The position numbers and the translations under genes were made by a program. Shown here one piece after another: positions 1 to 12,447 of a stretch of DNA of 12,447 bases (the stretch's first letter is position 1; the number at the start of each line of letters is the position of its first letter). The notes below the pieces were generated by a model. The model was given only the letters and a program-made list of their open reading frames with translations, did no database searches and had not been told where the DNA came from. Source of the DNA: a virus; UHGV virus genome UHGV-1611333, one strand, 5' to 3'.

Positions 1-165
1 GAAGGACAGGCTGAAGTGTGCCGCCGTAAAGCATGGAGTGTTGGTGTATGGGTCTGGCCTGATAATAGCTCTACTACTGGATGGTTTTGTATTAATGGAT
101 ACCAGATCCGGGAAGTCGATTTATCGACGGCGGATGCAGTCGGTAATGATTGGATCGTAACTTGA
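1..165 (+). CDS. 3' end of an upstream gene entering the window (partial, product unknown)
   Basis: Frame 1 is open from the window edge to TGA at 163-165. Frame 2 is also open to TAA at 158-160, so the true frame is ambiguous. A terminator hairpin follows immediately. Confidence 0.3.
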   Translation, partial: EGQAEVCRRKAWSVGVWVWPDNSSTTGWFCINGYQIREVDLSTADAVGNDWIVT

Positions 166-174
166 AGTGTGATG

Positions 175-199
175 CCCCGGCCTGGCCGGGGCTTTTTTA
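175..199 (+). terminator. Intrinsic terminator between convergent genes
   Basis: GC-rich hairpin CCCCGG-CCTGG-CCGGGG followed by CTTTTTTAT on the + strand. It sits between the 3' end of the + strand fragment and the stop codon (197-199) of the minus-strand gene. Confidence 0.6.
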
Positions 200-682
200 T
201 GCCTCATTAGTTGAGGTTGCTGCGTCTCCGACTGGTAACAGAGCTGTATTGCGTGGTTCGCCAGCAGGCCAGCGATAGCCAGACACTCTTGATGTTGGGA
301 ATGCGCGAATATTAACAGCATCCCCCTGGTTCCCACCCAAGACAAGCAGATCGCCATTGGCGCGGCGTCCGACAACAAAGCCTACATGCCCACCGCCTGC
401 GCGAGTAAATACAACGATACATCCGTATGCCGGTGTATCTAATTTCTCGCCCCAATCCAGATAGGATTTTGCCGACTCAAATCTTGTTGAGCGGATACCT
501 ACACGTTCCAGCATTGCACCAACAAATGCAGCGCACCACGGCGTTTCATCGTCTTTTATTCCGCCGCGCTTAATATCCCGCCAGAACTGGACGATCTCAG
601 GATTGTGTTTCGCTCCTTTTATTTCGGTGACACCAATATTTTTACGGGCTTCAATAAGCCAGCGAGGTTCATTATTGATCAT
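197..682 (-). CDS. Putative peptidoglycan hydrolase, CHAP/NlpC-P60-like (TIGR02594-like) protein
   Basis: 163-codon ORF on the minus strand. It has a conserved Cys context (ETPWCAAFVGAML) and a downstream His context (GGGHVGFVVG), typical of CHAP-type cysteine peptidase folds in phage and conjugative-element proteins. The GGAG Shine-Dalgarno is only 1 nt from the first ATG (686-688) but 7 nt from the second ATG, so the start is probably 682. Confidence 0.7.
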   Translation of the reverse strand: MINNEPRWLIEARKNIGVTEIKGAKHNPEIVQFWRDIKRGGIKDDETPWCAAFVGAMLERVGIRSTRFESAKSYLDWGEKLDTPAYGCIVVFTRAGGGHVGFVVGRRANGDLLVLGGNQGDAVNIRAFPTSRVSGYRWPAGEPRNTALLPVGDAATSTNEA

Positions 683-688
683 AATCAT

Positions 689-875
689 GCTCCGAATAAA
701 AAAAGAGCAATAACTATGTTGAGAATGTGATTTCTATTACACCAAACATTATTAAACGGCATTCATCTTTAACTTTATTCAATGTATTATCTAACAGAAA
801 AGTTAAACTGCGCTAAGTTAGTGATAACATTGGTCATTGTTAGCTTGCGTTATCTATTTGAGTAAAGAGATTGTC
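689..875. promoter_or_regulatory. AT-rich divergent intergenic region, presumed to carry promoters for both flanking genes
   Basis: 187 bp AT-rich spacer between divergently oriented genes. It contains several GTTAG/CTAAC elements (about 792-797, 818-822, 839-843). No single -35/-10 pair could be assigned with confidence. Confidence 0.3.
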
Positions 876-1373
876 ATGAAAAAAGCAATATTAGCGACTA
901 TTGTTTGTGCATTTGCATTATCAGGATGTGCTCCGGTTCAGACATACAACAAGCCTCAGCAAGTAAAACAGTTTGTTAAACGCCCAGCATTCCCTGTAGA
1001 GGAATATCAGGCATTGCCGAAAAAAGGTACAGGTAAGGTTAAGGGGGAGTTATTTGGAGTAACTCGCGGAGGGGATGTGAAGATTGGTGCTGGCTCCAAT
1101 ATCATACTGCGTCCGTATACTTCATATATCAAAAATACCCCCAAAATTGATTACGACACTCAGACCTTAGAAATAATCGACGGCAGGGTTGCGGAATATG
1201 ACAGAACTGTCCTGACAGATGCTCAAGGCAAATTTGAGTTCGAAAACGTACCACCAGGCCAGTATGAAGTGATTGGTTCGTTCAGTTGGTATGCTGGAAA
1301 TTTCCCGCAAATCGTTCTTCTGAAAAAAATCATTACCGTTAAGAACGGTGATGTTATCCAGGTTCAACCATGA
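876..1373 (+). CDS. Lipoprotein with a probable beta-sandwich (carboxypeptidase-regulatory-like) domain
   Basis: N-terminus MKKAILATIVCAFALSGC has a signal peptide and lipobox L-S-G-C. AAAGAG lies 6 nt upstream of ATG 876. The C-terminal motif GKFEFENVPPGQYEV resembles carboxypeptidase-regulatory/transthyretin-like folds. The ORF track start at 837 lacks an RBS and would place hydrophobic residues before the signal peptide. Confidence 0.8.
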   Translation: MKKAILATIVCAFALSGCAPVQTYNKPQQVKQFVKRPAFPVEEYQALPKKGTGKVKGELFGVTRGGDVKIGAGSNIILRPYTSYIKNTPKIDYDTQTLEIIDGRVAEYDRTVLTDAQGKFEFENVPPGQYEVIGSFSWYAGNFPQIVLLKKIITVKNGDVIQVQP

Positions 1374-1436
1374 TCCCCTTTTGAGTAAGAATCTTCGGGG
1401 TGTGATTCTGCGAAATTAACACACTCCATACCCTCT

Positions 1437-1474
1437 CAAACCGTACCGCTTAAGGCGGATTTAACGGTTTTGAG
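1437..1474 (+). terminator. Terminator-like two-tier hairpin directly upstream of the giant gene start
   Basis: CAAACCGT-ACCGC-TTAAG-GCGG-ATTTA-ACGGTTTT: outer 7-bp stem, inner CCGC/GCGG stem, then a TTTT run. It lies after the lipoprotein stop and ends at the first possible start codon of the giant ORF. Confidence 0.4.
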
Positions 1475-1484
1475 GGGGCTTCCT

Positions 1485-4400
1485 TTGGACAAAATAATTG
1501 ATTCAATTAGCCAGGCCACCAGCATTGGGGCGCTGATTGAAATTGTTAGTCGGTTGCATAAACCGCGAGCTGTAGTGACCTTTGGCGTTAAGAAAGTTGA
1601 TGGCGTCAGTATTCAGAAAACACGCCGGGCAGCAAACAACGCCGCAGTAGATCTTCTTAATTCCCTTCCGCCCGGCTTCGATGGGGCGAAATTAACTGAC
1701 GAACAGCGCCAGATTCTTGCCGGGTATACCGGTGAAGGCGGCCTGACAGATGGTGAGGGCAGCCAATACGAATACTACACGCCACAGTTTATGGCAGAAG
1801 GTATATGGGATCTCTTCGGCGACTACGGTATTGATGGCGGTCACGTACTGGAACCATCAGCGGGCACAGGTATTTTCCAGGAGACAAAACGGCAGGGCAT
1901 GATAATGACCAGCGCCGAACTGTCTCCGATTTCCGGTCGAATAAACCAGCTTTTGCACCCGGAAGACGATGTGAATATTGGGGCGTTTGAGGCGCTGGCG
2001 GCGAAAGACGCAATGTATGACCACGCTGTTGGTAACGTACCGTTTGGTGAAGGGCGTTCCGGCGTTGCCGGGCTTGATCCGGCATATGCAAACGAGAAGA
2101 ACGTTGGCAATTACTTTGTGTTGCGCACGATCGACAAGGTTAAGCCTGGTGGACTAATTGTATTGGTGGTGCCGAATGGCATGACCGATGGTACGAAATA
2201 CAAAAAATTGCGCGATAAAGTCAGCCGTAAGGCGGAATTTTTGGGCGCGCATCGTATGCCTTCTGGTACGTTCAGCGAATCCGGTACAGATACCGTGGTG
2301 GACGTATGGGTATTGCGTAAACACCCGGAAACCTTCCTGGAGATGATCCCCGACACGGATGATGCAACGCTCAAATCGGCAAACGTCCTTTGGGATACCT
2401 TCCTCAAAGGGAAATGGTTTACAACCGAAGGGAAGCGATTTGTTTACGGCGACATGGAACGCACCAGCTTCCGCAATACCCTGGTGGTGAAAAAGGACGG
2501 TCGTGTATCCAATGAGTCGATGAAAACCGCGTTATCACGCCGCTTTGAAAGCCGTATTAATTGGGATTTGCTCGGAGTAACTACCCAGGCATGGCAGGGC
2601 GCAAAAGTAGGGGATAAGCGCCTTGTAGGCGGTATCTGGCATGAGTTTGATGGCCTGAAATGGGTTAAGGACACGACAACCAAATCCTCCGCGCTTGATG
2701 TAAGTCGATATGGTGTTTCGACGTTTGGCGATCTGCAGATCGCGTTCCAGTCAACAAACGGGATTCTGGCTTTGTCATGGGACCAGATATCGGCGATCGC
2801 GTCCGACTATCCATCGGTTGTCAGTGATGAAGTGGCAGCAATGATTCGCTTTGCTGGCAAACAGCGAGAAAAAGACAGGGAGCGCGTTATGCGCGGTGCG
2901 TTGATAGGGCAGTTGATCAACAAGGCACTTGATTTGCGTAACCTGGGGGTGAACGTTGATGACAAACTGGCAGATGCATCCCGCCTGGCGGCAGCAGAAG
3001 TTGCGAAGTATGGACCACCGCACGCGATTAAGCTGAATGGGCTTGCAGAAGCTGGAGCTAAAAACTGGATGACGTTCACTGGCAACGTGAAACAGGATGG
3101 TTCCACTTCTGACCTTCTGGCAGGGCGACTTGATGTAACGGATGGTGCTGCCGGTATTGACTTTACACGTCCGGAACAAGTGATAGCACATCTTTTCAGT
3201 GATGTAGCCCTTAATCCTATAACGCTGGGCGACTTTCGTGAGGCGTTTGCTGGTGAACTGCCAGAGGACGACGACGCGGCCCTTGAATACCTGGCGAAAT
3301 TTGATGATATCGCTATTGATGGGTATGGCTGCCTGCTGCCGATGGACCGCGCCACCAGCGGCGATATTGCAACCAAAACAGCATTGCTGATGGGCTGGCG
3401 TGATGCGTCAACAGGTGAGCAGAAATCGAACTTTGAGCGTCAGTTGGCGAAAATCGAAGAGAAACGCATTTTCACGCCACTAAATAAAGTCACCGTTAAT
3501 CTGAACGCCCGCTGGCTGGATCGCCGCTTGATAAAAGAATTCCTGGCAGAGCAGGGCTATGACGAGTTTAAGTACACTGAACCTGATCTGAAGATCGTCG
3601 ATGGCATTCTGGTATCTCCGGACGATTACGAAGGTAAGGACGGGGTATTTACCGGCTATCAGCTACGAACCGTAAACGGCAAAAACGGGAATGAGTTCAA
3701 GAAGGCCAACAATAAAGACGGCTTCCTGAACCAGTTAGAAAACTACCTGAACGGTGTTAAACCGCGTGGGCAGAACGCTAACGAGTACCTGGATAAAATT
3801 GCTCAACTGGAAGTTAGTTTTAACGACTGGTTACGCACTCACCCGCAGGCTGATCAGATAGCCCGCGAGTATAACGACGCATTCAATGGCTTCATTCCGT
3901 TCACGCACTCTAACGCACCGCTTGGCCTGGAAGGGATTAGTGGAAAGCGCATTCCTCTGACTTATCAGAATGAAGAAGTTCGTCGCTTGTCAGAAGATGG
4001 GCGCGGCATCATGGGATTTGGTACCGGGCTGGGTAAAACCACGACCGCGCTTGCGCTTGAGGCGTATAACTTCGAAACAGGTCGCACTAAACGCACGTGT
4101 ATTGTTGTTCCGAAGGCGGTTTATCAGAACTGGTATCACGAGGCACAGAGCTTCTACAGTGCTGATGCCTTCGCAAATATGATGTTTATCGGTCTGGATG
4201 AAGTTCGTGATGAAGACGGCAATATTCTGACCGCGCCGGTGCTTGATGAAAATGGCGAACCCCGCCTCGACAGTAACGGGCAGCCTCTTACCAGAAATGT
4301 TGTGAAAGAGTCCGCCAGCGCCGTTATCGTTCAGCGCATGAACATGATCCCGTCGTCAAATTGGCGAACGATCATCATGACAAAAGAACAATTCGCGTCT

Positions 4401-7400
4401 ATCCCGCTACGAGAAAAAACCATCGAGGAGAACTCACAGCAAGCTGTCTTTAATGCTGTGGAAATGGGGCGTCTTGATCTGGCGTCCGGTAAACACCGTG
4501 ATGCGCAGAAGAAGAACAAGATTAAGGATCAGGCCGCGAATACCGGTACAACGAAGAAGCAGAATATCCCGTACTTTGAGGATATGAACTTCGATAGCGT
4601 GATTGCCGACGAGGGGCATAACTACCGCAACTCCTTTAATGCCGGGCGTGAAGCGGGACAACTGGCATATTTGCCTAACCCGGCAGTATCCAAGATGGCC
4701 CGCGACATGGCTGTAAAAGCTGCGTACATGATGAAACGCAACAACGGGCGTGGTGTAGTCATGCTGACGGCAACACCGCTGGTGAACAGTCCGATTGATG
4801 CCTTCAACATGCTGTCTACTGTCATTCCGCAGGAAGAGTGGATGCGCATGGGCATCATTACGCCTGATGATTTCGTTCGTGTGTTTGGTAAAACAGCCAC
4901 AGTTCAGGTCCAGAAAATTTCCGGGGAAGTGGAAGAGAAGCAGGGGCTGGTTGGCTTCCAGAACCTTGATGGCCTGCGTGGTATTTTCCATCGCTGGACT
5001 ACTCTGAAGACTGCTGCGGACGTCGGGGCGACGGTTAAAATCCCTGATATTGTCGAGAATACCTTGCAGATCCCGATGACAGGGGAGCAGGAGGCTGCTT
5101 ATGAAGAGCTTCGTAAGCGTGCACAGGAGTTAAGTAGTAAAGATGCGCTGACGGTTGATGAAAACGGGCATATCACAAACGAAAAACCGGATGATTTCAT
5201 CTTCTCCATCATCCGCGACATGGATAAGGTTGCTATAGATCCGGATCTGTATGCCAGTGCGATTACATTCCAGTTCCCCGTTGAGCTTGCAGACAAGGTA
5301 AAAGCTATTGCTGATGCCCTGCCAAAAGTAGCTGGCGGTAAAGTGGCAGATGATGCAGACGAGGCCGAAGAAGACGGCGCTGGTGGACTGGTTAGTACGC
5401 GCACCAGTAAGGTAGTGAAGACCACCTTTAGTGAACATCCGGCGCATGTTGAAATACGCGCCAGCATTGAACTGGAAGCTGAAATACTGAGGGCCATTGC
5501 TGCCGCCGGGATTGATCTACAGCAGGTATCACACCCCATCCCGCCGAAGTATGCCGCGCTGATCGAAAACCTTCGTGAAGGTCTGAAGAACGGTAAACAA
5601 ATTGTCTTCATTGATGAAAAAGCCCAGCACCAGAAGCTGCGCCGTATTATCGCCAGTGCACTGCAAATGCCGGAGCAGGAGATAGGCATTATCAATGCGA
5701 CGACCGTTAGCCAGGCTGGCGGCATCAAGCTGAAGAAGGTGAATAAGCCGACTGAACCTACTCCGAATAAAAACGGTGAATACAAAGAAGGGGCATGGGA
5801 AACCTACTACAGCAAACTTGCCCAATATGAGGATTATCTCTCAGCTAAAAATGATGCTGGCCTTGAGGGTATGGAAGGCATTGCCGCCGACTATAACGAA
5901 GGGCGCACGCGCATCATTATCTGTAACAAGAAGGCTGAAGTAGGTATTAACCTGCATATCGGGACAACCGATATCCACCACCTGACACTACCCTGGACAC
6001 CAGCCAGTATCGACCAACGAAATGGGCGCGGTGCGCGCGTAGGCTCACCGCAAGAGAAGGTCAATGTTCACTACTACTGTGGCAAAGGCACATTTGATGA
6101 TTTCCGCCTGGATACGCTGAAACGCAAGAAAGACTGGATCAAGATGGTGATGACCTCCGACATGTCAGAGATCGCCAATGGTGATGCGGATGATGCAGAT
6201 GAACGCGCCATTATGCTGGCAGCAAACCCGGAAGAACGCCGCGCAATCATGGCTCGCCAGGCACAAGAGCGTGAAGAACGTCTGAAACTGAAAGCACAGC
6301 GCGAGGCCAACAATGCTCTCGATATCTACCTGAAAGCGGCAAACGCCGCCGGAAAAGATATCGGCATGATGGAGACAGAACTGAAAAGCGCGATGGAACA
6401 GATAGAGTATTATCAGCGCAATCTTGACGACCTGATAAAAGCGGGTACGAACAGGAATGGGCAAAAATACGCGCTTGAGCAGTTGAGTAGCTACAGAAAA
6501 CGTGCGCGGGTGCTGCGGTTTGCGATCACCAGGGCAAAAGACGCGGATACCATTATGAAACGCTCTCGTGGTGATGTGGAACGCGCTATTAAGTCTGGTG
6601 TGCTGGATATCAGCATCGATGTTATTCAGAACCCGCAAGAATATATGCGCACTGACAAGAACATTCTGTTGCATAAAGGTAGTTATTACCGTGCAGTCAT
6701 TGATGATCGCGAAACAACAGCGATTGTCCGGGTGGAAAAAATTGACGGTGAAAAAGCACAATACCTCTGCCGTATCGCCTGGCTGGATAGAGCAAGTCGT
6801 TACGCTCGAGCACCGGGGTCAATCGTTACATTGCCGTTTGACTCTGTGATTGAAGCGGTAACTTTTGAAGAGGGGGTAGCTGAATCGCGCGCAACGGCTG
6901 CGCGTGGTGTTCAGTGCCACCAGCTATCAACAATACTTACTCGCGATCAGTTCTATGATGCTATTCGCAATGGGGTAATGAATGTTATTGCTGGTAAATC
7001 TGGTAATGCATGGGGCGGTGGGTCAGCTATTAAATACTGGGCATATCGCACAGATGATGGTCAGATCGCGCTGTCATCGGCCTATGATGGCGTGATAGGC
7101 CAAAAAATCGGGCGAGCATCGGATATAGCACCTGAGCGATGGATATATCCTGATGGCAACGACGAGGCGCTGAAGCGTGAAGTGGCAAAAATACAAGCCA
7201 GTGATAACCCGCTGAATATCGTGGACGGCGAGGGATTCCTCCAGGCATTGTATGGGTATGATTACATCCAGGGAATGCAGGCATGGGGCGCACAGGCAAC
7301 GATGGATGATGTTGCCCAGGAGTTCGAAAACTGGATGGCTGGGCGTGGTCTGTCAGGTCGTTCGCTTAATAAAGTCACTTCTGAAGATATTCTTAGCTTG

Positions 7401-8321
7401 TTCCGCAAACCGTCCGGAGAAGGTCTGGAATCATTCTGGAGGACCGTGCTGGCATACCGTTTATTCCAGGGCAGGATGAAAGCCTTTAGCAATATCGATG
7501 ATATTGAACGGATGTTTAATCAGGTCAAGATAGCGAAAATTAAGACGAAGATCGAAAAAACACGTTCTGCGCTGGTGGCCTGGCGCGATGCATTGTTTGA
7601 GCAATATAAATCACTCAGTGATGCAGATGGATGGGCGGCACTGGAACAGTTGGCGAATAATGGGGTAGATGGAGCGAAACTCGCCATTGTCCAGGCTGAT
7701 AACCCCCTGGAATCACCGGCAGCACAGTGGATTAAGGTGGGGGCTGTCATCAATGCATTTGATGAAAAACACATTAGTAAGGACGATTTTGCTGATGCTG
7801 TTTCTGTTAATCGCCTGGTAGAAATGGCTACCCGCCGCGCCCGTGAGTTGAAAGACGGTGACTATGTGAATGAGTTGCCGGATGCGCTCAAATCAGCAAC
7901 GTGGCAAGACTATGTATCGCTGAAAAACGGCGGGGCCACCGAATCAGAGATCGCGGAAAGGCTTGAACAGGCTGAAAGCAAAAGAGAAGAGCAGGCGGCA
8001 GTGGCTGAAGCCAGAGCTGATGAAGCGGCGAATGATGACTATATCATTGTGGTTAATGATAAGCCGATTCGCGCTAAGGCGCGTGTTCGCGGGCGCTGGT
8101 GGAGCGTCAGCGAGGACGTCGGTGCGGTTTATCTCATTGCCGACCAACCTGGTTCCTCGACAATACGGAACGCCAAAGACGCGATTAAGAAGATTGGCGG
8201 GCGTTTCTGGAATTTTGAAGCAAACCCGGTTGCTGATGTGAACTTTGACCGTCCGGCATGGATGGTATCTACGCGTTACTCGGTAGATGAACTGCGTAAA
8301 ATAATCGCCGATGCGGCCTAA
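1485..8321 (+). CDS. Giant fused N6-adenine DNA methyltransferase / SF2 helicase protein (phage P1 DarB-like antirestriction architecture)
   Basis: 6.8-kb uninterrupted ORF. Methyltransferase motif I VLEPSAGTGIF (about nt 1848-1874) and motif IV GNVPFG (2031-2048). Helicase Walker A GFGTGLGKTT (about 4011-4040), DEGH box (4605-4619), LTATPL motif III and motif VI QRNGRGARVG (6015-6044). The C-terminal ~700 aa are coiled-coil-rich with no recognised motifs. The ORF is open from TTG 1470, but TTG 1485 has a GAGGGGG Shine-Dalgarno 6 nt upstream and is the more likely start. Confidence 0.9.
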   Translation: MDKIIDSISQATSIGALIEIVSRLHKPRAVVTFGVKKVDGVSIQKTRRAANNAAVDLLNSLPPGFDGAKLTDEQRQILAGYTGEGGLTDGEGSQYEYYTPQFMAEGIWDLFGDYGIDGGHVLEPSAGTGIFQETKRQGMIMTSAELSPISGRINQLLHPEDDVNIGAFEALAAKDAMYDHAVGNVPFGEGRSGVAGLDPAYANEKNVGNYFVLRTIDKVKPGGLIVLVVPNGMTDGTKYKKLRDKVSRKAEFLGAHRMPSGTFSESGTDTVVDVWVLRKHPETFLEMIPDTDDATLKSANVLWDTFLKGKWFTTEGKRFVYGDMERTSFRNTLVVKKDGRVSNESMKTALSRRFESRINWDLLGVTTQAWQGAKVGDKRLVGGIWHEFDGLKWVKDTTTKSSALDVSRYGVSTFGDLQIAFQSTNGILALSWDQISAIASDYPSVVSDEVAAMIRFAGKQREKDRERVMRGALIGQLINKALDLRNLGVNVDDKLADASRLAAAEVAKYGPPHAIKLNGLAEAGAKNWMTFTGNVKQDGSTSDLLAGRLDVTDGAAGIDFTRPEQVIAHLFSDVALNPITLGDFREAFAGELPEDDDAALEYLAKFDDIAIDGYGCLLPMDRATSGDIATKTALLMGWRDASTGEQKSNFERQLAKIEEKRIFTPLNKVTVNLNARWLDRRLIKEFLAEQGYDEFKYTEPDLKIVDGILVSPDDYEGKDGVFTGYQLRTVNGKNGNEFKKANNKDGFLNQLENYLNGVKPRGQNANEYLDKIAQLEVSFNDWLRTHPQADQIAREYNDAFNGFIPFTHSNAPLGLEGISGKRIPLTYQNEEVRRLSEDGRGIMGFGTGLGKTTTALALEAYNFETGRTKRTCIVVPKAVYQNWYHEAQSFYSADAFANMMFIGLDEVRDEDGNILTAPVLDENGEPRLDSNGQPLTRNVVKESASAVIVQRMNMIPSSNWRTIIMTKEQFASIPLREKTIEENSQQAVFNAVEMGRLDLASGKHRDAQKKNKIKDQAANTGTTKKQNIPYFEDMNFDSVIADEGHNYRNSFNAGREAGQLAYLPNPAVSKMARDMAVKAAYMMKRNNGRGVVMLTATPLVNSPIDAFNMLSTVIPQEEWMRMGIITPDDFVRVFGKTATVQVQKISGEVEEKQGLVGFQNLDGLRGIFHRWTTLKTAADVGATVKIPDIVENTLQIPMTGEQEAAYEELRKRAQELSSKDALTVDENGHITNEKPDDFIFSIIRDMDKVAIDPDLYASAITFQFPVELADKVKAIADALPKVAGGKVADDADEAEEDGAGGLVSTRTSKVVKTTFSEHPAHVEIRASIELEAEILRAIAAAGIDLQQVSHPIPPKYAALIENLREGLKNGKQIVFIDEKAQHQKLRRIIASALQMPEQEIGIINATTVSQAGGIKLKKVNKPTEPTPNKNGEYKEGAWETYYSKLAQYEDYLSAKNDAGLEGMEGIAADYNEGRTRIIICNKKAEVGINLHIGTTDIHHLTLPWTPASIDQRNGRGARVGSPQEKVNVHYYCGKGTFDDFRLDTLKRKKDWIKMVMTSDMSEIANGDADDADERAIMLAANPEERRAIMARQAQEREERLKLKAQREANNALDIYLKAANAAGKDIGMMETELKSAMEQIEYYQRNLDDLIKAGTNRNGQKYALEQLSSYRKRARVLRFAITRAKDADTIMKRSRGDVERAIKSGVLDISIDVIQNPQEYMRTDKNILLHKGSYYRAVIDDRETTAIVRVEKIDGEKAQYLCRIAWLDRASRYARAPGSIVTLPFDSVIEAVTFEEGVAESRATAARGVQCHQLSTILTRDQFYDAIRNGVMNVIAGKSGNAWGGGSAIKYWAYRTDDGQIALSSAYDGVIGQKIGRASDIAPERWIYPDGNDEALKREVAKIQASDNPLNIVDGEGFLQALYGYDYIQGMQAWGAQATMDDVAQEFENWMAGRGLSGRSLNKVTSEDILSLFRKPSGEGLESFWRTVLAYRLFQGRMKAFSNIDDIERMFNQVKIAKIKTKIEKTRSALVAWRDALFEQYKSLSDADGWAALEQLANNGVDGAKLAIVQADNPLESPAAQWIKVGAVINAFDEKHISKDDFADAVSVNRLVEMATRRARELKDGDYVNELPDALKSATWQDYVSLKNGGATESEIAERLEQAESKREEQAAVAEARADEAANDDYIIVVNDKPIRAKARVRGRWWSVSEDVGAVYLIADQPGSSTIRNAKDAIKKIGGRFWNFEANPVADVNFDRPAWMVSTRYSVDELRKIIADAA

Positions 8322-8357: not shown

Positions 8358-8792
8358 ATGACGACATTAATTGACACTGTAAAACCGACGGAATCCTACC
8401 TTGAGGATATTTTGCCGCAGGCGCTCAATGGCAGGAGTGAAGAGGCGTTTCTGGATGCATATCTGGATGGTATGGTGGAAAGGCTGAAACGAGATCCACA
8501 GCTTTATCATCTTTATGGCCCGTGGTGGCCTGCGCTTAAAACGTTATTGCTGGAGCGCGGCGACATCTCATTTGGACAAGTTGTAGATAGTGATGTGGCA
8601 GAGATCTACAAAATGAGTCGCCCGGCGCTTACGGTTTTATCCGGGCATCTGTATTCGAGCGATCGCCTGGAAAATGACGCGGTATACAATCCCGTTCATG
8701 CTCTGGAAGTCGCGCCTTATGCTGATGATACAGAGCCATACGTGTACACAAGTTACGACGAGTCGATAGAGAAATATCGAATCATGGGGTAG
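8358..8792 (+). CDS. Hypothetical protein (144 aa)
   Basis: ORF starts 36 nt after the giant gene stop, in the same orientation. No recognisable motif. No obvious Shine-Dalgarno; a GC hairpin (8333-8350) sits between an upstream AGGGAG and the ATG. Confidence 0.55.
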   Translation: MTTLIDTVKPTESYLEDILPQALNGRSEEAFLDAYLDGMVERLKRDPQLYHLYGPWWPALKTLLLERGDISFGQVVDSDVAEIYKMSRPALTVLSGHLYSSDRLENDAVYNPVHALEVAPYADDTEPYVYTSYDESIEKYRIMG

Positions 8793-9178: not shown

Positions 9179-9206
9179 TTGATAAAACTAACGCTCTTGT
9201 TATTAT
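9179..9206 (+). promoter_or_regulatory. Candidate sigma70 promoter for the VRR-NUC operon
   Basis: TTGATA (9179-9184), 16-nt spacer, TATTAT (9201-9206). A second weaker candidate is TTGACC (9098-9103), 17-nt spacer, TAAAAA (9121-9126). Confidence 0.4.
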
Positions 9207-9230
9207 CGTAATCCTGATTTCAGGAAGTTT

Positions 9231-9240
9231 GTGTTAGAAA
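9231..9240 (+). promoter_or_regulatory. Copy 1 of the recurrent GTGTTAGAAA motif
   Basis: GTGTTAGAAA sits 4 nt upstream of ATG 9245 and about 25 nt downstream of the candidate -10, i.e. an operator-like position in the 5' UTR. Confidence 0.4.
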
Positions 9241-9244
9241 TTTG

Positions 9245-9688
9245 ATGCGAAGACGCAGGCATCATAGTGCGTATTCTGAAATATCCCCGCACGCTGCTGC
9301 ACTAAGAGAGTTAGAAAGAAATCCTGACTTACTAAAAAGGAATTTCGAACATTACGAACAGGTTCGCGTTCTGGATTGGCTGTATCGCAACATGCGATAC
9401 GTGTATGAACACACACACTCAACACCGAACGGCGGCCTGAGAGGCAAAAGGACAGCCATTAAGATGGTGGCAGAAGGTCAGAAGAAGGGCTATCCGGACC
9501 TTTCTATTGACCTTGCTCGTGGTGGGTATCACGGAATGCGCATTGAGATGAAGCACGGGAGAAACCGTCTGACTCCCGAACAGCTTGTCTGGATGACCCG
9601 CCTCACGGAAGCAGGCTATTACTGCTTTGAGGCGCGCAGTGCCGATGAAGCCATAAAAGCTATCACGGAATATGTAAATCTTGATTAA
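9245..9688 (+). CDS. VRR-NUC domain nuclease (PD-(D/E)xK superfamily)
   Basis: N-terminal EQVRVLDWL element and catalytic core GYPDLSIDLARGGYHGMRIEMKHG (PD ... E-x-K) encoded at about 9487-9555. The ORF track starts at TTG 9242; ATG 9245 is used here. Confidence 0.75.
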   Translation: MRRRRHHSAYSEISPHAAALRELERNPDLLKRNFEHYEQVRVLDWLYRNMRYVYEHTHSTPNGGLRGKRTAIKMVAEGQKKGYPDLSIDLARGGYHGMRIEMKHGRNRLTPEQLVWMTRLTEAGYYCFEARSADEAIKAITEYVNLD

Positions 9689-9702: not shown

Positions 9703-9903
9703 TTGCGTTTACTTAACGTGGCTGAACTTATCCCTGCCGGTGCTAACGTTGTTGCTCGTCGCTGCTCATGGCCTCATTCTTTCTGTATAGAGCTTAAAAA
9801 GATGGATGATGGGGCATTAGAAGCCCGAAACATAGTTACCGGCGACAAGGTATGCATTACCCCGGAAAGCGCGAAAGCCAATGATTGGGAGTTTGTTCAT
9901 TGA
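9703..9903 (+). CDS. Hypothetical small protein (66 aa)
   Basis: TTG start with GGAG 8 nt upstream (9691-9694), 14 nt after the VRR-NUC stop. No recognised motif. Confidence 0.4.
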   Translation: MRLLNVAELIPAGANVVARRCSWPHSFCIELKKMDDGALEARNIVTGDKVCITPESAKANDWEFVH

Positions 9904-9965
9904 GCAGAAAACACCACGTAAATCTGACGTTTGCTGATGACGCCGGAAGAACCAGAAGCATAACC

Positions 9966-10211
9966 ATGAAAGTTGCTTCCAGGAAAGTAACCGCTCCACT
10001 TATACGAGAGGCCGTAAGTGAACTTGAGATGAGTGAGAATGCAGCTCTGTTATCGGTAAGCTGGCTGGGGAAAATGACGGATCAGGAATACTCGGATGGT
10101 ATACCCCACGGTGAGCGGCAGATAGTAAAGCGCGCGCTTAGAATTTCAGAGGTAGTTGTCGTACTGATAGCTTTGATTTATATGGCATACATGCTACTCC
10201 AACACGTCTAA
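9966..10211 (+). CDS. Small protein with a C-terminal transmembrane helix (tail-anchored), 81 aa from ATG 9966
   Basis: The ORF is open from TTG 9885, which would overlap the upstream gene by 19 nt. The first ATG is at 9966. The C-terminus EVVVVLIALIYMAYMLLQHV is a clear hydrophobic helix. A strong terminator follows the stop. Confidence 0.4.
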   Translation: MKVASRKVTAPLIREAVSELEMSENAALLSVSWLGKMTDQEYSDGIPHGERQIVKRALRISEVVVVLIALIYMAYMLLQHV

Positions 10212-10219
10212 ACGGTCAT

Positions 10220-10246
10220 AAACCCGCCAGTTGGCGGGTTTTTTGT
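10220..10246 (+). terminator. Rho-independent terminator of the VRR-NUC operon
   Basis: AAACCCGCC-AGTT-GGCGGGTTTTTTG: 6-7 bp GC stem, 4-nt loop, U tract, beginning 9 nt after the stop at 10209-10211. Confidence 0.8.
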
Positions 10247-10285
10247 TGCCTGAGTCTTTTTATTGAAATTGCATACTAATAAAAT

Positions 10286-10304
10286 GTGTTAGAAAACTAA
10301 TTTC
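10286..10304 (+). promoter_or_regulatory. Copy 2 of the recurrent motif (GTGTTAGAAAACTAATTTC)
   Basis: Located between the terminator and the RBS (AGGGAA 10310-10315) of the 402-aa gene, 17 nt before ATG 10321. A TTGAAA element at 10264-10269 is nearby. Confidence 0.45.
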
Positions 10305-10320
10305 AAAAAAGGGAACAAAC

Positions 10321-11529
10321 ATGAGTCAGCAAGTAGAATCATCAAGCCTGGAGATCATCTCAACCGCAATTGAAACGCTGCGGACACAAATCGCGCTTAT
10401 ACAGAAACGAAATCCGGGCGATGATCTGTCAAAGCGACTGCATGAGAGCGTCATTGCCACTACAGATAACCTGGTGGCGGAAATCAACCAGCTCCTTGAT
10501 GATGGGGCAGTTGATTACAATAAGCTGGTGGATCAGTTTGAGGAATATCAGCAAGCCGTTAATGATGGCTTGATCCGTTTTTCTCAAGTCACTGGTGTAT
10601 CTGCGACAGTTGAAAGCCTGGGGGATGCTGTTAATCAATTTGCCGCGAATATGCGTAATGAGATCGGCAATCTGGAGGCGCGTCTTGAGCAGGCAAATAC
10701 ATTGCGCAAATCTGCTGAAGTCGATTTGAGTCGTTACAAAAAAGACTATCCGCCAAGCCTGACAAAACGACTGGATGTTGCGGAGAAAGATAACCGCACT
10801 CTGAAAAGAGAGCGTCGGGAACTAAAAGAGCGCTTAACCAAGCTAAATCAGCAATGCGTTGAGTATCAAGGCGAACTCGTCACACTGCGTAAAAAGTTAG
10901 CAGCGGCGCAGAGCATTATTGAAACATTGAAACGAGAGTGCTCAGAGCTTGGTAATGATCTGAATCGCGCCTGTGGCATGGGGCAAAGGCCAGAGACATT
11001 CCCGCTAATGTATGACGGAAGAGAAGCTATTGCCTATATCCATGAGTTTCCGCATGGTCTGGTCGCGGAGACTGGGCAACGTGGCGAAGCGTTGCTGACG
11101 GCAAATTACCATCAGCAAATCAGAACCAGCCGCCTGCTGACGATGGATGTGATCCCGTCAGTATGGGGAACGCCGCTTTACTACCGAATTCCTGGCTTCG
11201 AAACTGACTGGAATACCGACATAGACGAATGTCTGGCAGATAAAATTATGGCGTACCTTGAAACGGATTTTCCACGCTTGCATCGCCGGATTATGGACTC
11301 TAAGGATGCACCGATCGACGAATTGAAAATGCGTCCAGAGACGTTGGAGGCAATCAAGCAGACTGAGTTTGATACGGTGTTCAGTGTGGCCTGCATTCCA
11401 AGCAGCTTTCATGAAAGCATTCCGTTCATGCAGGGCGATCGACGTCAGGAAATAATTGATGCTTGCCGGGTATGGGCGAACGAGTGGGATAAGAAGAACG
11501 GTGGAGTTGAAAATCTTTACGGGAAATAA
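10321..11529 (+). CDS. Hypothetical coiled-coil protein (402 aa) with a C-terminal globular domain
   Basis: Long ORF with an RBS. Residues about 1-220 are heptad-rich and charged (e.g. LKRERRELKERLTKLNQQCVEYQGELVTLRKKLAAAQSIIETLKRE). The C-terminal ~180 aa are non-repetitive. No catalytic motif recognised. Confidence 0.85.
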   Translation: MSQQVESSSLEIISTAIETLRTQIALIQKRNPGDDLSKRLHESVIATTDNLVAEINQLLDDGAVDYNKLVDQFEEYQQAVNDGLIRFSQVTGVSATVESLGDAVNQFAANMRNEIGNLEARLEQANTLRKSAEVDLSRYKKDYPPSLTKRLDVAEKDNRTLKRERRELKERLTKLNQQCVEYQGELVTLRKKLAAAQSIIETLKRECSELGNDLNRACGMGQRPETFPLMYDGREAIAYIHEFPHGLVAETGQRGEALLTANYHQQIRTSRLLTMDVIPSVWGTPLYYRIPGFETDWNTDIDECLADKIMAYLETDFPRLHRRIMDSKDAPIDELKMRPETLEAIKQTEFDTVFSVACIPSSFHESIPFMQGDRRQEIIDACRVWANEWDKKNGGVENLYGK

Positions 11530-11530
11530 T

Positions 11531-11562
11531 GTGTTAGAAAACTAAAATTATCTTTCTAACAT
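11531..11562. promoter_or_regulatory. Copy 3 of the motif, arranged as an inverted repeat (TGTTAGAAA-N12-TTTCTAACA)
   Basis: GTGTTAGAAAACTAAAATTATC at 11531-11552 begins 2 nt after the 402-aa stop. Its 9-bp reverse complement TTTCTAACA lies at 11553-11561, giving a palindromic operator-like site or an AU-rich hairpin. Confidence 0.45.
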
Positions 11563-11598
11563 GTTGATTATGGAATTAACTTAACATAGAATTTTTCG

Positions 11599-11667
11599 TG
11601 CTGGTGGGGAGCTTCCCATGTCGCTTGCGGGTTTGATAGTCACTTCATTGTCTTCTCCCCACCAGCA
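11599..11667. repeat. Perfect 12-bp inverted repeat (TGCTGGTGGGGA / TCCCCACCAGCA) with a 45-nt spacer
   Basis: Arms at 11599-11610 and 11656-11667. A 25-codon ORF (ATG 11618, GGGGAG upstream) starts inside the loop. No flanking U tract, so not a classic terminator. Confidence 0.4.
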
Positions 11668-11681
11668 TCAAACAAATTTAA

Positions 11682-11700
11682 GTGTTAGAAAGTAAATTTA
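11682..11700 (+). promoter_or_regulatory. Copy 4 of the recurrent motif (GTGTTAGAAAGTAAATTTA)
   Basis: Same 10-nt core followed by a TAAATT element, at the entrance to the structured non-coding region. Confidence 0.4.
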
Positions 11701-11903
11701 AGGGTAAGGGAAAGCTCCGGCACCGTGCAAATACATGCCCGGCAGGTTTAGTGCGTAAAGTGGTTTCAGCGAGAGCATTTTACGGAGTAAACGACAGTGA
11801 CTTGAGCCACGGAAGGTCTTTTTAAGGTGTTCATTGATGATGATCTGGCAGTGAGTATGTTAAGTGGGCCAGGCTGCATCGGGTCATCATCAGTGCACAT
11901 CCT

Positions 11904-11971
11904 CAACGTTAAGGAGGCGCAGAGTTGGGTTTTCCTCTTATTTTGCTGACTCTGAGTCTCCTTAACGTTGC
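11904..11971. repeat. Long imperfect inverted repeat / RNA hairpin that sequesters a strong Shine-Dalgarno
   Basis: Left arm CAACGTTAAGGAG GCGCAGAG (11904-11924) pairs with CTCTGAGT CTCCTTAACGTTG (about 11951-11971): 13 perfect bp plus about 6 more with 2 mismatches. AAGGAGG at 11911-11917 is inside the left arm. Confidence 0.5.
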
Positions 11972-12104
11972 GGTAATGCACCTATGCGGATGTGGCCTTG
12001 CATTGTGTTTTGAAAGAATGGGGCAAGGCCGGGGATATCCCCAGGGGGAGGCACCCCCGCTGCAACGAACAGCCATAGACGGCAGTCGAGTGATGAAAAC
12101 GTGA
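11925..12104 (+). CDS. Candidate small hydrophobic peptide (59 aa, TTG start); speculative
   Basis: TTG 11925 lies 7 nt after AAGGAGG. It translates to MGFPLILLTLSLLNVAVMHLCGCGLALCFERMGQGRGYPQGEAPPLQRTAIDGSRVMKT, stop at 12102-12104. The hydrophobic N-terminal half is encoded across the hairpin. It is below the ORF-track size cutoff and may be a structured RNA rather than coding. Confidence 0.2.
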   Translation: MGFPLILLTLSLLNVAVMHLCGCGLALCFERMGQGRGYPQGEAPPLQRTAIDGSRVMKT

Positions 12105-12192
12105 AAAGACTTTAAACCTCGTTACGGCTGGCGTGGCAAACGCGACAACCGGGATAGGACGGTGACGGGCGGAGAGAGAGCCGCTTCAAGAT

Positions 12193-12259
12193 AAAAGCCG
12201 ACTATGGATTCCTTTCTGCGGGCCTTTGAAAGTGAATCTTGCTCAGGCAGTCGGCTTTT
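12193..12259. repeat. 11-bp perfect inverted repeat (AAAAGCCGACT / AGTCGGCTTTT) with a 45-nt spacer
   Basis: Arms at 12193-12203 and 12249-12259, followed by TTTTATGTTG. Either a large-loop hairpin within a structured RNA or a weak terminator. Confidence 0.4.
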
Positions 12260-12391
12260 ATGTTGATACGTAGCGATAACCGCGACAGGCGCGGCGGCAA
12301 GTATGGCGGGGTAGTGACTCCTTCCCCCTCATGACGCCGAGTTGCCAGGTTGACCATACGCCTAAGTGGCAATACCGCGAGTGGGATATTT

Positions 12392-12417
12392 GCCCATCTT
12401 CGGGTGGGCGTTTTTTT
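12392..12417 (+). terminator. Textbook intrinsic terminator with a UUCG tetraloop
   Basis: GCCCATC-TTCG-GGTGGGC (7-bp stem including one G-U pair, C(UUCG)G tetraloop) followed by GTTTTTTT at 12410-12417. A possible ATG of a downstream gene follows at 12431. Confidence 0.8.
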
Positions 12418-12447
12418 CAGGGTTTTCGTCATGGTTAGCGACTTTGC

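Follow-up and report, generated by a model that had tools for sequence, protein, structure and literature searches.

The 402-amino-acid-residue ORF analysed here is, judging from its sequence, the D6-type orthologue of P1 PmgS and a member of the catalogued PmgS family over its full length. The ORF lies in a window of 12,447 nt, which is the whole stretch of DNA analysed (UHGV virus genome UHGV-1611333). With about even confidence, we read it as a PmgS orthologue expressed as a C1-controlled early gene, whose product would be a coiled-coil accessory factor acting on DNA or nucleoprotein. The gene appears to be a fairly ordinary early phage gene, already catalogued and functionally unsolved.

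The window DNA showed 98.7% identity to ~90-kb non-mobilisable E. coli plasmids and 92.7% identity to phage D6, and by sequence comparison its source is a D6-like, P1-related phage-plasmid of E. coli. The ORF has a ribosome-binding site, AGGGA, 6 nt upstream of its ATG, and all close homologues align with the protein from Met1 onward. The PHROG 1660 profile matched residues 1-401 (profile positions 1-404/405) with E=1e-142. D6 orf9, which the D6 record calls both 'similar to P1 pmgS' and 'putative prohead scaffolding protein', is 94% identical to the 402-residue protein. BLASTP against P1 PmgS gave 22% identity (residues 2-395 vs 7-415, E=1e-13), and this alignment is collinear over both halves of the protein. 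Like P1 PmgS (P1_gp093; PHROG 1660 'PmgS-like head morphogenesis'), which has 420 residues compared with 402 here, the window protein has an N-terminal coiled coil and, after it, a globular head that ends in W..W(D/E)..NGG. Two ORFs upstream resemble P1 PmgM (VRR-NUC; 56% identity, E=9e-48) and P1 PmgR (28% identity, E=1e-7). The order pmgM ... pmgR-pmgS is the same in the window and in P1, and the D6 annotation agrees with it. The gene is located just 3' of the DarB/Ulx antirestriction genes. Homologues were collected by a word-indexed profile search, which reached only the close clade, and by an exhaustive HMM search, which gave 86 representatives. Among P1-like phage-plasmids, pmgS is one of 21 genes reported to be extremely conserved in 77 of these elements (PMC9603915).

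Table 1. Features of the pmgS-like gene and its surroundings (positions in the window).
Feature	Position	Strand	Remarks
Sigma70-like promoter TTGATA-16-TATTAT	9179-9206		At start of pmgM-like / orf / pmgR-like operon
Motif copy 1, TGTGTTAGAAATTTGA, putative C1-type operator	9230-9245	+	Core 9232-9240; start of pmgM-like (VRR-NUC) / orf / pmgR-like operon
Intrinsic terminator	10220-10250	+	Ends upstream pmgM-orf-pmgR-like operon; hairpin 10220-10241, then TTTTGTT
-10 hexamer TAAAAT of the pmgS-like gene's own promoter	10280-10285	+	Predicted from sequence
Motif copy 2, putative C1-type operator	10285-10300	+	Core TGTTAGAAA at 10287-10295; overlaps putative transcription start of pmgS-like gene
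pmgS-like CDS	10321-11529	+	ATG start, 402 aa; PHROG 1660 match; D6 orf9 94% identical; P1 PmgS 22% identical
Helical half, residues 9-217	10345-10971	+	AF2: four long helices, coiled-coil or helical hairpin; conservation lowest here
Beta subdomain, residues 222-296	10984-11208	+	Four strands; conserved signature YIH.FP.GL ... H.QIRT ... W(G).P
(HhH)2 domain, residues ~333-395	11317-11505	+	Resembles RNAP alpha-CTD and RAD51 N-terminal domain; GhG hairpins degenerate in D6/P1 lineage
Motif copy 3 and inverted partner, 30-bp palindrome (putative divalent operator)	11530-11561	.	Just 5' of next promoter
Sigma70-like promoter TTGATT-17-TAGAAT of downstream unit	11564-11592	+	Leads toward dicF-like region
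Strong hairpin	11594-11672	+	Stem is a pair of inverted Chi sequences; dG -32 kcal/mol, z -4.5
Motif copy 4, AAGTGTTAGAAAGTAAATT	11681-11699	+	Core 11683-11691; 3' of next promoter; kept in relatives

As shown in Table 1, an intrinsic terminator separates the gene from the operon upstream. The terminator stem has 9 bp with 6 GC pairs (10-bp perfect arms in the repeat search), and every relative, down to 46% and up to 100% protein identity, keeps the hairpin and T-run. At the promoter of the pmgS-like gene, D6-like relatives keep the block ACTAATAAAAT(R)TGTTAGAAAA, and relatives at 46-47% identity have TATAAT-tcg-TTAGAAAA at the same place as the -10 and motif. The -10 plus motif block is a phylogenetic footprint that extends down to 46% protein identity, with variable flanks. 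A consensus promoter scan made no call at 10280-10285, and neither a conserved -35 nor a P1-type late -22 box was found 5' of the gene. With a terminator upstream, followed by a predicted -10 and a motif copy, the pmgS-like gene forms a separate transcription unit. P1 pmgS, by contrast, is coupled in translation to pmgR, and the two share OpmgRa/b, annotated as C1 operators together with a sigma70 promoter; in the window the terminator and a separate promoter and putative operator lie between pmgR and pmgS. Both genes are behind prophage-repressor operators, putative in the window.

The 16-mer TGTGTTAGAAAACTAA occurs exactly at 10285-10300 and 11530-11545 and with 3 mismatches at 9230-9245. 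These 3 matches compare with 0.12 expected, and none of 200 shuffles attained 3. The core TGTTAGAAA was found 5 times in the window (9232+, 10287+, 11532+, 11553- and 11683+) against 0.07 expected. Copy 3 begins 1 nt past the TAA stop of the pmgS-like gene, and its arms (11532-11545 and 11548-11561) are 86% complementary and 2 nt apart. The first half-site is kept in relatives; the second arm is absent in D6 and most relatives, so the palindrome is lineage-specific. The promoter that follows keeps its -35, spacing and -10 in all relatives. The copies at 11530-11561 and 11683 flank this promoter and belong to the next unit, not to the pmgS-like gene. The preliminary description had claimed the 402-residue ORF, the upstream terminator and the motif copies, including a palindromic copy immediately past the stop, all of which were confirmed, with the motif far above chance. 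It had also proposed from the bracketing by motif copies that the gene is regulated as its own unit; this holds for the -10 and motif after the terminator, but not for copy 3, which serves the next promoter.

Between the downstream promoter and copy 4 lies a strong hairpin, with Chi (GCTGGTGG) at 11600-11607 (+ strand) and 11659-11666 (- strand) in its stem. The stem is kept in relatives and the loop varies; in P1 the same stem is the terminator after pmgS. Rfam (at the gathering threshold and at E<=1) and ARAGORN gave no RNA gene in or after this region. The DNA is unusually Chi-rich, and if PmgS-like proteins are early effectors (see below), they may be linked to this Chi-rich DNA and to the inverted-Chi hairpin beside the gene.

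In D6 the exact core TGTTAGAAA is present in 12 copies, all of them intergenic. They include copies 28 bp 5' of c1, on either side of ref, 5' of hrdC/dmt and 5' of icd/ant, with further copies at pmgM, at pmgS and at the unit 3' of pmgS; a 2-mismatch copy of the motif is found 5' of lpa. The consensus T(G/A)TGTTAGAAAACTAATTT describes a 16-19-bp asymmetric site, and the motif is a dispersed genome-wide regulatory site rather than a cassette bracket around the pmgS-like gene. In the two P1 stretches compared, C1 operators are annotated at c1, ban, 26/pmgL, ppp, pmgR-pmgS and pmgT, and we take P1 C1 operators to lie likewise at ref, dmt, lpa and c4/icd-ant. Because its distribution among genes mirrors the P1 C1 operator map, the motif is most likely the operator of the D6-type C1 prophage repressor. 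D6 orf1 is 21% identical to P1 C1 over 240 residues (E=2e-8), and a relative carries a PF27008 Phage_P7_repressor_C1 gene. Like the P1 C1 regulon, the set comprises asymmetric A/T-rich sites with an invariant core, dispersed between genes at early and regulatory promoters including that of c1; single and inverted-pair (divalent) sites both occur, and the element carries a repressor homologous to P1 C1. P1 C1 operators are 17-bp asymmetric sites, mono- and divalent, and the D6-type sequence differs from them (TGTGTTAGAAAACTAA here vs ATTGCTCTAATAAATTT in P1). Many P1 operators overlap the -35; the usual place of the putative D6-type site is just past the -10, across the transcription start.

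An AF2 model built from a 60-sequence alignment reached a mean pLDDT of 86; it superseded an earlier run with 10 close homologues, in which pLDDT was 30-47 over residues 240-300. In this model, long helices at residues 9-217 are followed by a mixed beta/alpha C-terminal region at 222-395. The C-terminal module has two helix-hairpin-helix motifs in a five-helix bundle, that is, the (HhH)2 fold, in common with RNAP alpha-CTD, RAD51-NTD and the Brr2 Sec63 HhH module. Its closest structural match in Foldseek was RNAP alpha-CTD. The family C-terminal profile matched Brr2 (2.1e-6), RAD51 (7.8e-6) and RpoA (1.9e-5) in PDB, and hhalign against E. coli alpha-CTD gave E=3.5e-5 and a probability of 72%. 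Pfam HHH_5 was detected in 12 of 60 family members and RNA_pol_A_CTD in 8 of 60, neither of them in the window protein. Unlike in alpha-CTD and RAD51, the module belongs neither to a recombinase nor to a subunit of RNA polymerase; it is joined instead to a 220-residue coiled coil and a beta subdomain. For the beta subdomain, Foldseek searches of PDB and BFVD returned nothing significant, and XLF/XRCC4, which came up at a probability of only 0.02-0.04, was rejected. When the whole protein and residues 221-402 were scanned with Pfam, NCBIfam and PADLOC, there was either no match or coiled-coil noise below threshold, and a PDB sequence search with a 10-sequence full-length profile gave coiled-coil noise only.

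The window protein has FMQ and E-F-D where G-h-G is expected, and the alpha-CTD DNA-contact positions R265/G296/K298 correspond to E340/Q371/D373; R265 and K298 and the hairpin glycines are thus replaced in the D6/P1-lineage module. The whole protein is acidic (segment pI values 4.7-5.5), as is the (HhH)2 domain, with a net charge of -4. Since the contact residues are replaced, the GhG hairpins lost and the domain acidic, direct DNA binding is doubtful in the D6/P1 lineage, where the partner of the module may be a protein and not DNA. In distant family members, such as the homologue of Vibrio phage douglas 12A4, the hairpins are still of the canonical form (KGIGxKTA), an argument that DNA binding was the ancestral role. 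Many residues across 310-400 are invariant within the D6-like clade.

The division of the protein into a coiled-coil half and a separate acidic C-terminal domain, as initially described from the DNA letters, is borne out by these data, and so is the location of the gene on a mobile element, a D6-like phage-plasmid. The C-terminal domain had been called unrecognised; this remains so for the beta subdomain, which lacks a significant match, but the last ~65 residues are (HhH)2 / alpha-CTD-like. Such proteins had also been said to be often unannotated. Database labels for this gene are indeed inconsistent ('hypothetical', 'DivIVA domain-containing', 'Morphogenetic protein', 'predicted nuclease with TOPRIM domain'), but the protein is no orphan, being a full-length member of PHROG 1660. 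The confident match covers both domains, but since the PmgS family to which it leads lacks a known function, it goes only halfway toward the refutation named in that description. The overall interpretation in that description is partly supported.

We propose that the gene would be transcribed from its own weak sigma70 promoter, with the -10 TAAAAT at 10280-85, and that the start region of this promoter would be covered by the asymmetric site, a putative D6-type C1 operator. We infer from this arrangement that C1 binding to the motif would keep the gene silent in the plasmid prophage and that it would be turned on early after induction or infection. The co-induced C1 regulon would include ref, hrdC/dmt, icd/ant, lpa, the pmgM-pmgR operon and the dicF-like/tRNA unit. 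The long helical coiled-coil half probably dimerises, and the globular head would consist of the small beta subdomain, two helices and the (HhH)2 module of the RNAP alpha-CTD / RAD51-NTD type. As its most likely role we propose that of a dispensable early accessory factor, working in replication, recombination, modification or host takeover on DNA or on a complex of proteins bound to DNA, and probably not that of a virion or prohead scaffold.

It is quite unlikely that TGTTAGAAA instead belongs to promoters, whether as an extended -10 (TGnTAGAAA) or as an Lpa-type late-activator box that would make the gene late. TG-T-TAGAAA resembles an extended -10, but the hexamer is without the critical final T, and at the pmgS-like gene and in relatives a better -10 (TAAAAT or TATAAT) lies 2-3 bp 5' of the motif. 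In D6, 9 of the 12 copies point at the adjacent gene, and P1 pmg genes were first named for a presumed late or morphogenetic role. Among the nine is a copy 5' of the major capsid gene, which is not an early gene and counts against the operator reading. The other three copies point away from the adjacent gene and run antisense into gene 3' ends, and inverted pairs occur among the copies; these sites therefore fit an operator better than a promoter element. Copies are found at c1, lpa, ref, hrdC/dmt and icd/ant and at none of the tail, baseplate or lysis operons, and the motif bears no relation to the late -22 boxes of P1 (AAGTTACTT type). The RefSeq name 'DivIVA domain-containing protein' on some copies and weak Pfam DivIVA and NCBIfam SMC/Rad50 matches would suggest a DivIVA-like, SMC-like or other cytoskeletal or cell-division protein. 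The likelihood of this is negligible: DivIVA (PF05103) scored 18.9 bits against a 28-bit cut-off over 52 coiled-coil residues only, SMC/Rad50/JetC matched coiled-coil segments only (15-27 bits vs cut-offs of 560-1000) with no ATPase head, and dozens of unrelated coiled-coil families score equally. The sub-cut-off scores effectively refute such an identity.

The labels in D6 ('putative prohead scaffolding protein') and PHROG (category 'head and packaging') imply that the helical coiled-coil protein would nucleate the assembly of the capsid and depart before DNA is packaged. Like the P22 gp8 and phi29 gp7 scaffolds, which are elongated helical proteins of similar size with a small helical C-terminal module, the protein has a long helical N-terminal half in its predicted model. 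[quoted passage not shown] P1 deletion of the neighbouring pmgR leaves unjoined heads and tails. We nevertheless consider a scaffold very unlikely. In the same study, pmgS was deleted in frame and does not belong to the five knockouts in which plaque formation was lost, and the other 24 are without a plaquing or antirestriction defect; the authors propose the N-terminal 120 residues of the capsid precursor as scaffold (PMC9024508). CRISPRi knockdown scored P1 pmgS as nonessential (PMC10695390). P1 pmgS is thus dispensable, the P1 protein being only 22% identical to the window protein. Unlike the P22 and phi29 scaffold genes, the gene lies outside the head cluster: in D6 it is at 9.1-10.3 kb, compared with 22.5-25.2 kb for portal and protease and 52.4-54.1 kb for the major capsid gene, and in the window, too, it is not near capsid, portal or protease genes. 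It has a repressor-type putative operator and sigma70-type elements without a conserved late-promoter box, an early-type regulation. Distant homologues are far from head genes, in early recombination or methylase operons: in two Vibrio phages a DNA methyltransferase is directly 3', in Aeromonas phiARM81mr the homologue comes after RecE/RecT/Int and two genes before a Dam methylase, and in Aeromonas ST4 it comes after a DUF4942-methyltransferase. Because P1 pmgS is dispensable and these homologues lie beside methyltransferase or RecE/RecT genes, we favour an early role on DNA or nucleoprotein, and the 'head scaffold' label is probably wrong. Rather unlikely, in our estimate, is a reading of the (HhH)2 head as a decoy that binds protein and not DNA: by mimicking alpha-CTD or NusA-AR, it would titrate a host factor that normally contacts RNAP alpha-CTD or a recombination protein, and the protein would act in host takeover or anti-defence and be dispensable in laboratory strains. 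Such a decoy would agree with the alpha-CTD as top structural match, with the acidic domain, with a surface very strongly conserved in the D6-like clade although the DNA-contact residues and GhG hairpins are gone, with the position next to DarB/Ulx, and with the extreme conservation of a dispensable pmgS in P1-like phage-plasmids (PMC9603915). Against it, the P1 pmgS deletion left antirestriction activity unchanged (PMC9024508), PADLOC and anti-defence families gave no match beyond coiled-coil noise, and the canonical hairpins of distant members favour ancestral DNA binding. We regard it as unlikely that a dimeric coiled coil presenting two (HhH)2 heads represents an unrecognised early effector class, the P1/D6 heads of which, their DNA contacts lost, would act as mimics and hijack a host partner of RNAP alpha-CTD or of the recombination machinery within minutes of derepression.

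If this mimic-effector reading were true, the 'putative morphogenetic' PmgS would be a host-takeover or recombination-control factor. As a candidate operator of the D6-type immunity repressor, the consensus T(G/A)TGTTAGAAAACTAATTT offers a means of mapping the early regulon in these phage-plasmids, which are widespread in E. coli and Salmonella. Annotation pipelines propagate a misleading 'head morphogenesis / scaffold' label for the conserved PmgS. The (HhH)2 module, the methyltransferase and recombination neighbours and the putative repressor-type operators suggest looking for the function in early DNA transactions or host takeover rather than in the assembly of virions.

The window was closely related to Escherichia phage D6, a plasmid prophage related to P1, with 91% of the window aligning to D6 at 92.7% identity. 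The segment 10200-11700 showed 98.7% identity to ~90-kb non-mobilisable plasmids of E. coli and E. marmotae and ~87% identity to about 100 more E. coli and Salmonella plasmids. The D6 record has the order peptidoglycan hydrolase (opposite strand), darB, ulx, orf13, pmgM, orf11, pmgR, pmgS and then the tRNA/tciA region, and the gene order of the window is the same. Upstream of darB, a divergent gene pair codes for a 163-aa peptidoglycan hydrolase of the CHAP/TIGR02594 type and for a predicted 178-aa lipoprotein with a weak carboxypeptidase-regulatory-like domain; the D6 record has no annotation for the lipoprotein gene. In the relative L010 (logan ERR15987340_899), a Tn3-family transposase, a resolvase and a SIR2_2 plus DUF87 pair, the latter a candidate defence cargo, replace darB-ulx-pmgM upstream of pmgR/pmgS (115-7308).

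Features of the window around the pmgS-like gene
Feature	Position	Remark
Divergent gene pair upstream of darB	197-688 (-), 837-1373 (+)	
DarB-like ORF	1470-8321	2283 aa
Ulx-like ORF	8358-8792	
Motif copy 1	9230-9245	3 mismatches; immediately precedes PmgM-like ORF
PmgM-like ORF	9242-9688	VRR-NUC
PmgR-like ORF	9885-10211	108 aa
Motif copy 2	10285-10300	exact
pmgS-like ORF	10321-11529 (+)	402 aa
Motif copy 3	11530-11545	exact
Motif copy 4	11683	core
Chi sites	1516, 3352, 5379, 6917, 7571, 8095, 8956, 10524, 11600-11607 (+), 11659-11666 (-)	
Chi-stem hairpin	11594-11672	dG -32, z -4.5
Region past the gene	11564-12447	~0.9 kb
Similarity to P1/P7 'dicF-like region'	12271-12447	81-90% identity
Terminator	12391-12410	

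The 402-aa gene is almost certainly a member of the PmgS family. Its ORF has an ATG start with an AGGGA ribosome-binding site 6 nt upstream, and the product matched PHROG 1660 ('PmgS-like head morphogenesis') over residues 1-401 (E=1e-142). It is 94% identical to the product of D6 orf9 and aligns collinearly with P1 PmgS (22% identity, E=1e-13). An exhaustive HMM search over 1.84 billion cluster representatives recovered only 86 relatives. Short fragments aside, most representatives have 350-470 aa and match across the greater part of their length, so the family is defined by its two-part architecture. Database names for the protein cluster disagree (hypothetical, 'Morphogenetic protein', 'DivIVA domain-containing', 'predicted nuclease with TOPRIM domain'), and the DivIVA and SMC-type labels were rejected, only sub-threshold coiled-coil matches lying behind them. 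The protein is a newly added member of a known family with uncharacterised function. The annotation of plasmid pMUB-MIN14-1 (NZ_CP069647.1, 12122-13331) divides the orthologue into two CDSs, one for a 'hypothetical protein' of 97 aa and one for a 'DivIVA domain-containing protein' of 292 aa, apparently owing to a frameshift or sequencing error; the split is compatible with a dispensable gene.

The preliminary description had placed this ORF between a strong terminator and copies of a repeated, partly palindromic motif, and each of these elements was found. In the terminator, 6 of the 9 base pairs of the stem are GC, and a T-run comes after the stem. The 16-mer TGTGTTAGAAAACTAA occurs three times, counting the mismatched copy 1 (0.12 expected), and copy 3 forms with its partner a 30-bp palindrome. 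The 9-bp core TGTTAGAAA is present in 5 copies, all between ORFs (0.07 expected). The complete D6 genome carries 12 copies of the core, all intergenic by the annotation except for one copy inside the annotated 5' end of pmgM (orf12; 11366-11374 of the GenBank record), the equivalent of copy 1. Because an operator-like site falls there, the annotated orf12 start codon is probably too far upstream. One D6 site lies 28 bp ahead of c1, and an inverted near-copy is found ~85 bp farther upstream. The pmgS gene has a site in front of it and two behind it, sites also precede pmgM and icd/ant, an inverted pair precedes hrdC/dmt, and ref is flanked on either side. Others lie between the major capsid gene and orf52, between ppp and pdcB, and next to cre; a near-copy with 2 mismatches precedes lpa. 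Alignment of 17 sites gave the consensus T(G/A)TGTTAGAAAACTAATTT, directly preceded by an A/T-rich, often -10-like flank.

C1 operators of P1 lie, among other places, at ref, dmt, lpa and c4/icd-ant. In the two stretches of the P1 record that were covered, they are annotated at c1, ban, 26/pmgL, ppp, pmgR-pmgS and pmgT. The D6 sites parallel the distribution of the P1 operators, and D6 orf1 encodes a distant homologue of C1. Three D6 sites are directed away from the adjacent gene and several form inverted pairs, as would be expected of an operator rather than of a promoter element. We therefore regard the motif as a putative D6-type C1 operator, a likely assignment. The D6-type regulon would be organised like the C1 regulon of P1, with a different operator sequence.

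The layout on both sides of the gene was shared by all relatives compared, whose PmgS proteins were 100%, 95%, 93%, 73% and 46-47% identical. Upstream come the terminator hairpin, ~35 unconserved nt, a -10/motif block, the ribosome-binding site and the ATG. The block reads ACTAATAAAAT(R)TGTTAGAAAA(Y)TAA, and for the 46-47% relatives TATAAT-tcg-TTAGAAAA. This layout gives the gene a -10 of its own, with a putative operator over the start site, in agreement with the earlier view of a separate regulatory unit. This is a real difference from P1, where pmgS lacks its own promoter and overlaps pmgR, both behind OpmgRa/b. The stop codon is followed by a TGTTAGAAA site, a conserved TTGATT-17-TA(G/C/A)AAT promoter, a hairpin and a second TGTTAGAAA site, so the supposed bracketing of the gene did not hold: copies 3 and 4 lie on either side of the next unit's promoter, and that unit extends toward the region annotated 'dicF-like' in P1. 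C1 would repress the pmgS-like gene in the plasmid prophage, and the gene would be turned on early after induction or infection.

E. coli Chi (GCTGGTGG) occurs 10 times in the 12.4 kb (0.37 expected). Two of these copies, inverted relative to each other, pair as the stem of a very stable hairpin that begins directly after the conserved downstream promoter; in relatives the stem is kept and the loop varies, and in P1 the same stem serves as terminator after pmgS. The region past the gene has its sigma70-like promoter between two putative operator copies; no convincing ORF, Rfam family or tRNA was detected in it, and it may be a non-coding early transcript. By its Pfam score (26.1 bits, cut-off 23.8 bits) the product named PmgM is a VRR-NUC nuclease and not an obvious morphogenetic protein. 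The PmgR-like ORF aligns with the essential 72-aa PmgR of P1, has an extra C-terminal hydrophobic stretch (VVVVLIALIYMAYMLLQHV) absent from P1 PmgR, and ends at the strong terminator dividing it from the pmgS-like gene.

An AF2 model from 60 family members had a mean pLDDT of 86 and agreed with the proposed coiled-coil N-terminal half and separate C-terminal region. In the model, helices at 9-30, 35-91, 100-141 and 145-217 lead into a four-stranded beta unit (226-280), after which the C-terminus is helical (299-393). Among members of the D6-like clade the coiled coil varies freely, and the invariant positions lie mostly in the C-terminal 180 residues. The latter, previously called unrecognised, proved to be so only in part. 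In Pfam scans of each of the 60 members, 12 contained HHH_5 and 8 contained RNA_pol_A_CTD, with best E values of 8e-7 and 5e-7, respectively. A profile of the C-terminal 185 residues from 30 members (alignment A3) matched, over query positions ~98-170, the Brr2 Sec63 HhH modules (2e-6), the RAD51 N-terminal domain (8e-6) and RNA polymerase alpha (2e-5). No fold could be assigned to the beta subdomain (222-296; signature YIH.FP.GL...H.QIRT...W(G).P).

PHROG 1660 names a head morphogenesis function, and a structural or scaffold role is disfavoured by results in P1. An in-frame pmgS deletion was made there; only 5 of 29 knockouts (pmgA, B, C, G and R) lost plaque formation, and the remaining 24 had no plating or antirestriction defect (PMC9024508). 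The same authors suggested the N-terminal domain of the capsid precursor as scaffold (PMC9024508), and CRISPRi knockdown scored pmgS nonessential (PMC10695390). Distant homologues lie in early operons. The pmgS-like gene comes first in the operon of Vibrio phage douglas 12A4, with a DNA methyltransferase directly next, and stands between YfdP/YfdQ (DUF2303) and a methyltransferase in Vibrio phage 1F273_PE002. In Aeromonas phiARM81mr it follows RecE, RecT and Int in a CI-proximal early operon, with a Dam methylase two genes downstream, and in Aeromonas ST4 a DUF4942-methyltransferase is directly upstream. Orphan DNA methyltransferases thus repeatedly adjoin these genes (loci L007, L008, L040 and L041), directly downstream in two phages, two genes downstream in one and directly upstream in one. 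Together with RecE/RecT, these neighbours may mean that the gene is functionally linked to DNA modification or recombination.

We consider an early DNA or nucleoprotein accessory factor, not a scaffold, about an even bet; confidence in any specific biochemical activity is low. The protein would be a dimer whose coiled-coil stalk carries an (HhH)2 head, and would act on DNA or a DNA-bound complex. The main functional rival, that the head binds protein rather than DNA in the D6/P1 lineage, is rather unlikely, and the loss of DNA-contact residues in that lineage speaks for it: the canonical KGIGxKTA hairpin, kept in distant members, is absent from the D6 and P1 lineages, R265/G296/K298 of the alpha-CTD correspond to E340/Q371/D373 in the 402-aa protein, and its module is acidic.

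The feature is real and was correctly observed, and its interpretation is mostly ordinary once the element is identified; the result would not surprise a specialist. The operator consensus may be new, yet may already be described. The (HhH)2 assignment and the consistent early-operon and methyltransferase context of the PmgS family may also be new. The value lies in an annotation correction and in a lead on a functionally uncharacterised P1/D6 gene that is very conserved.
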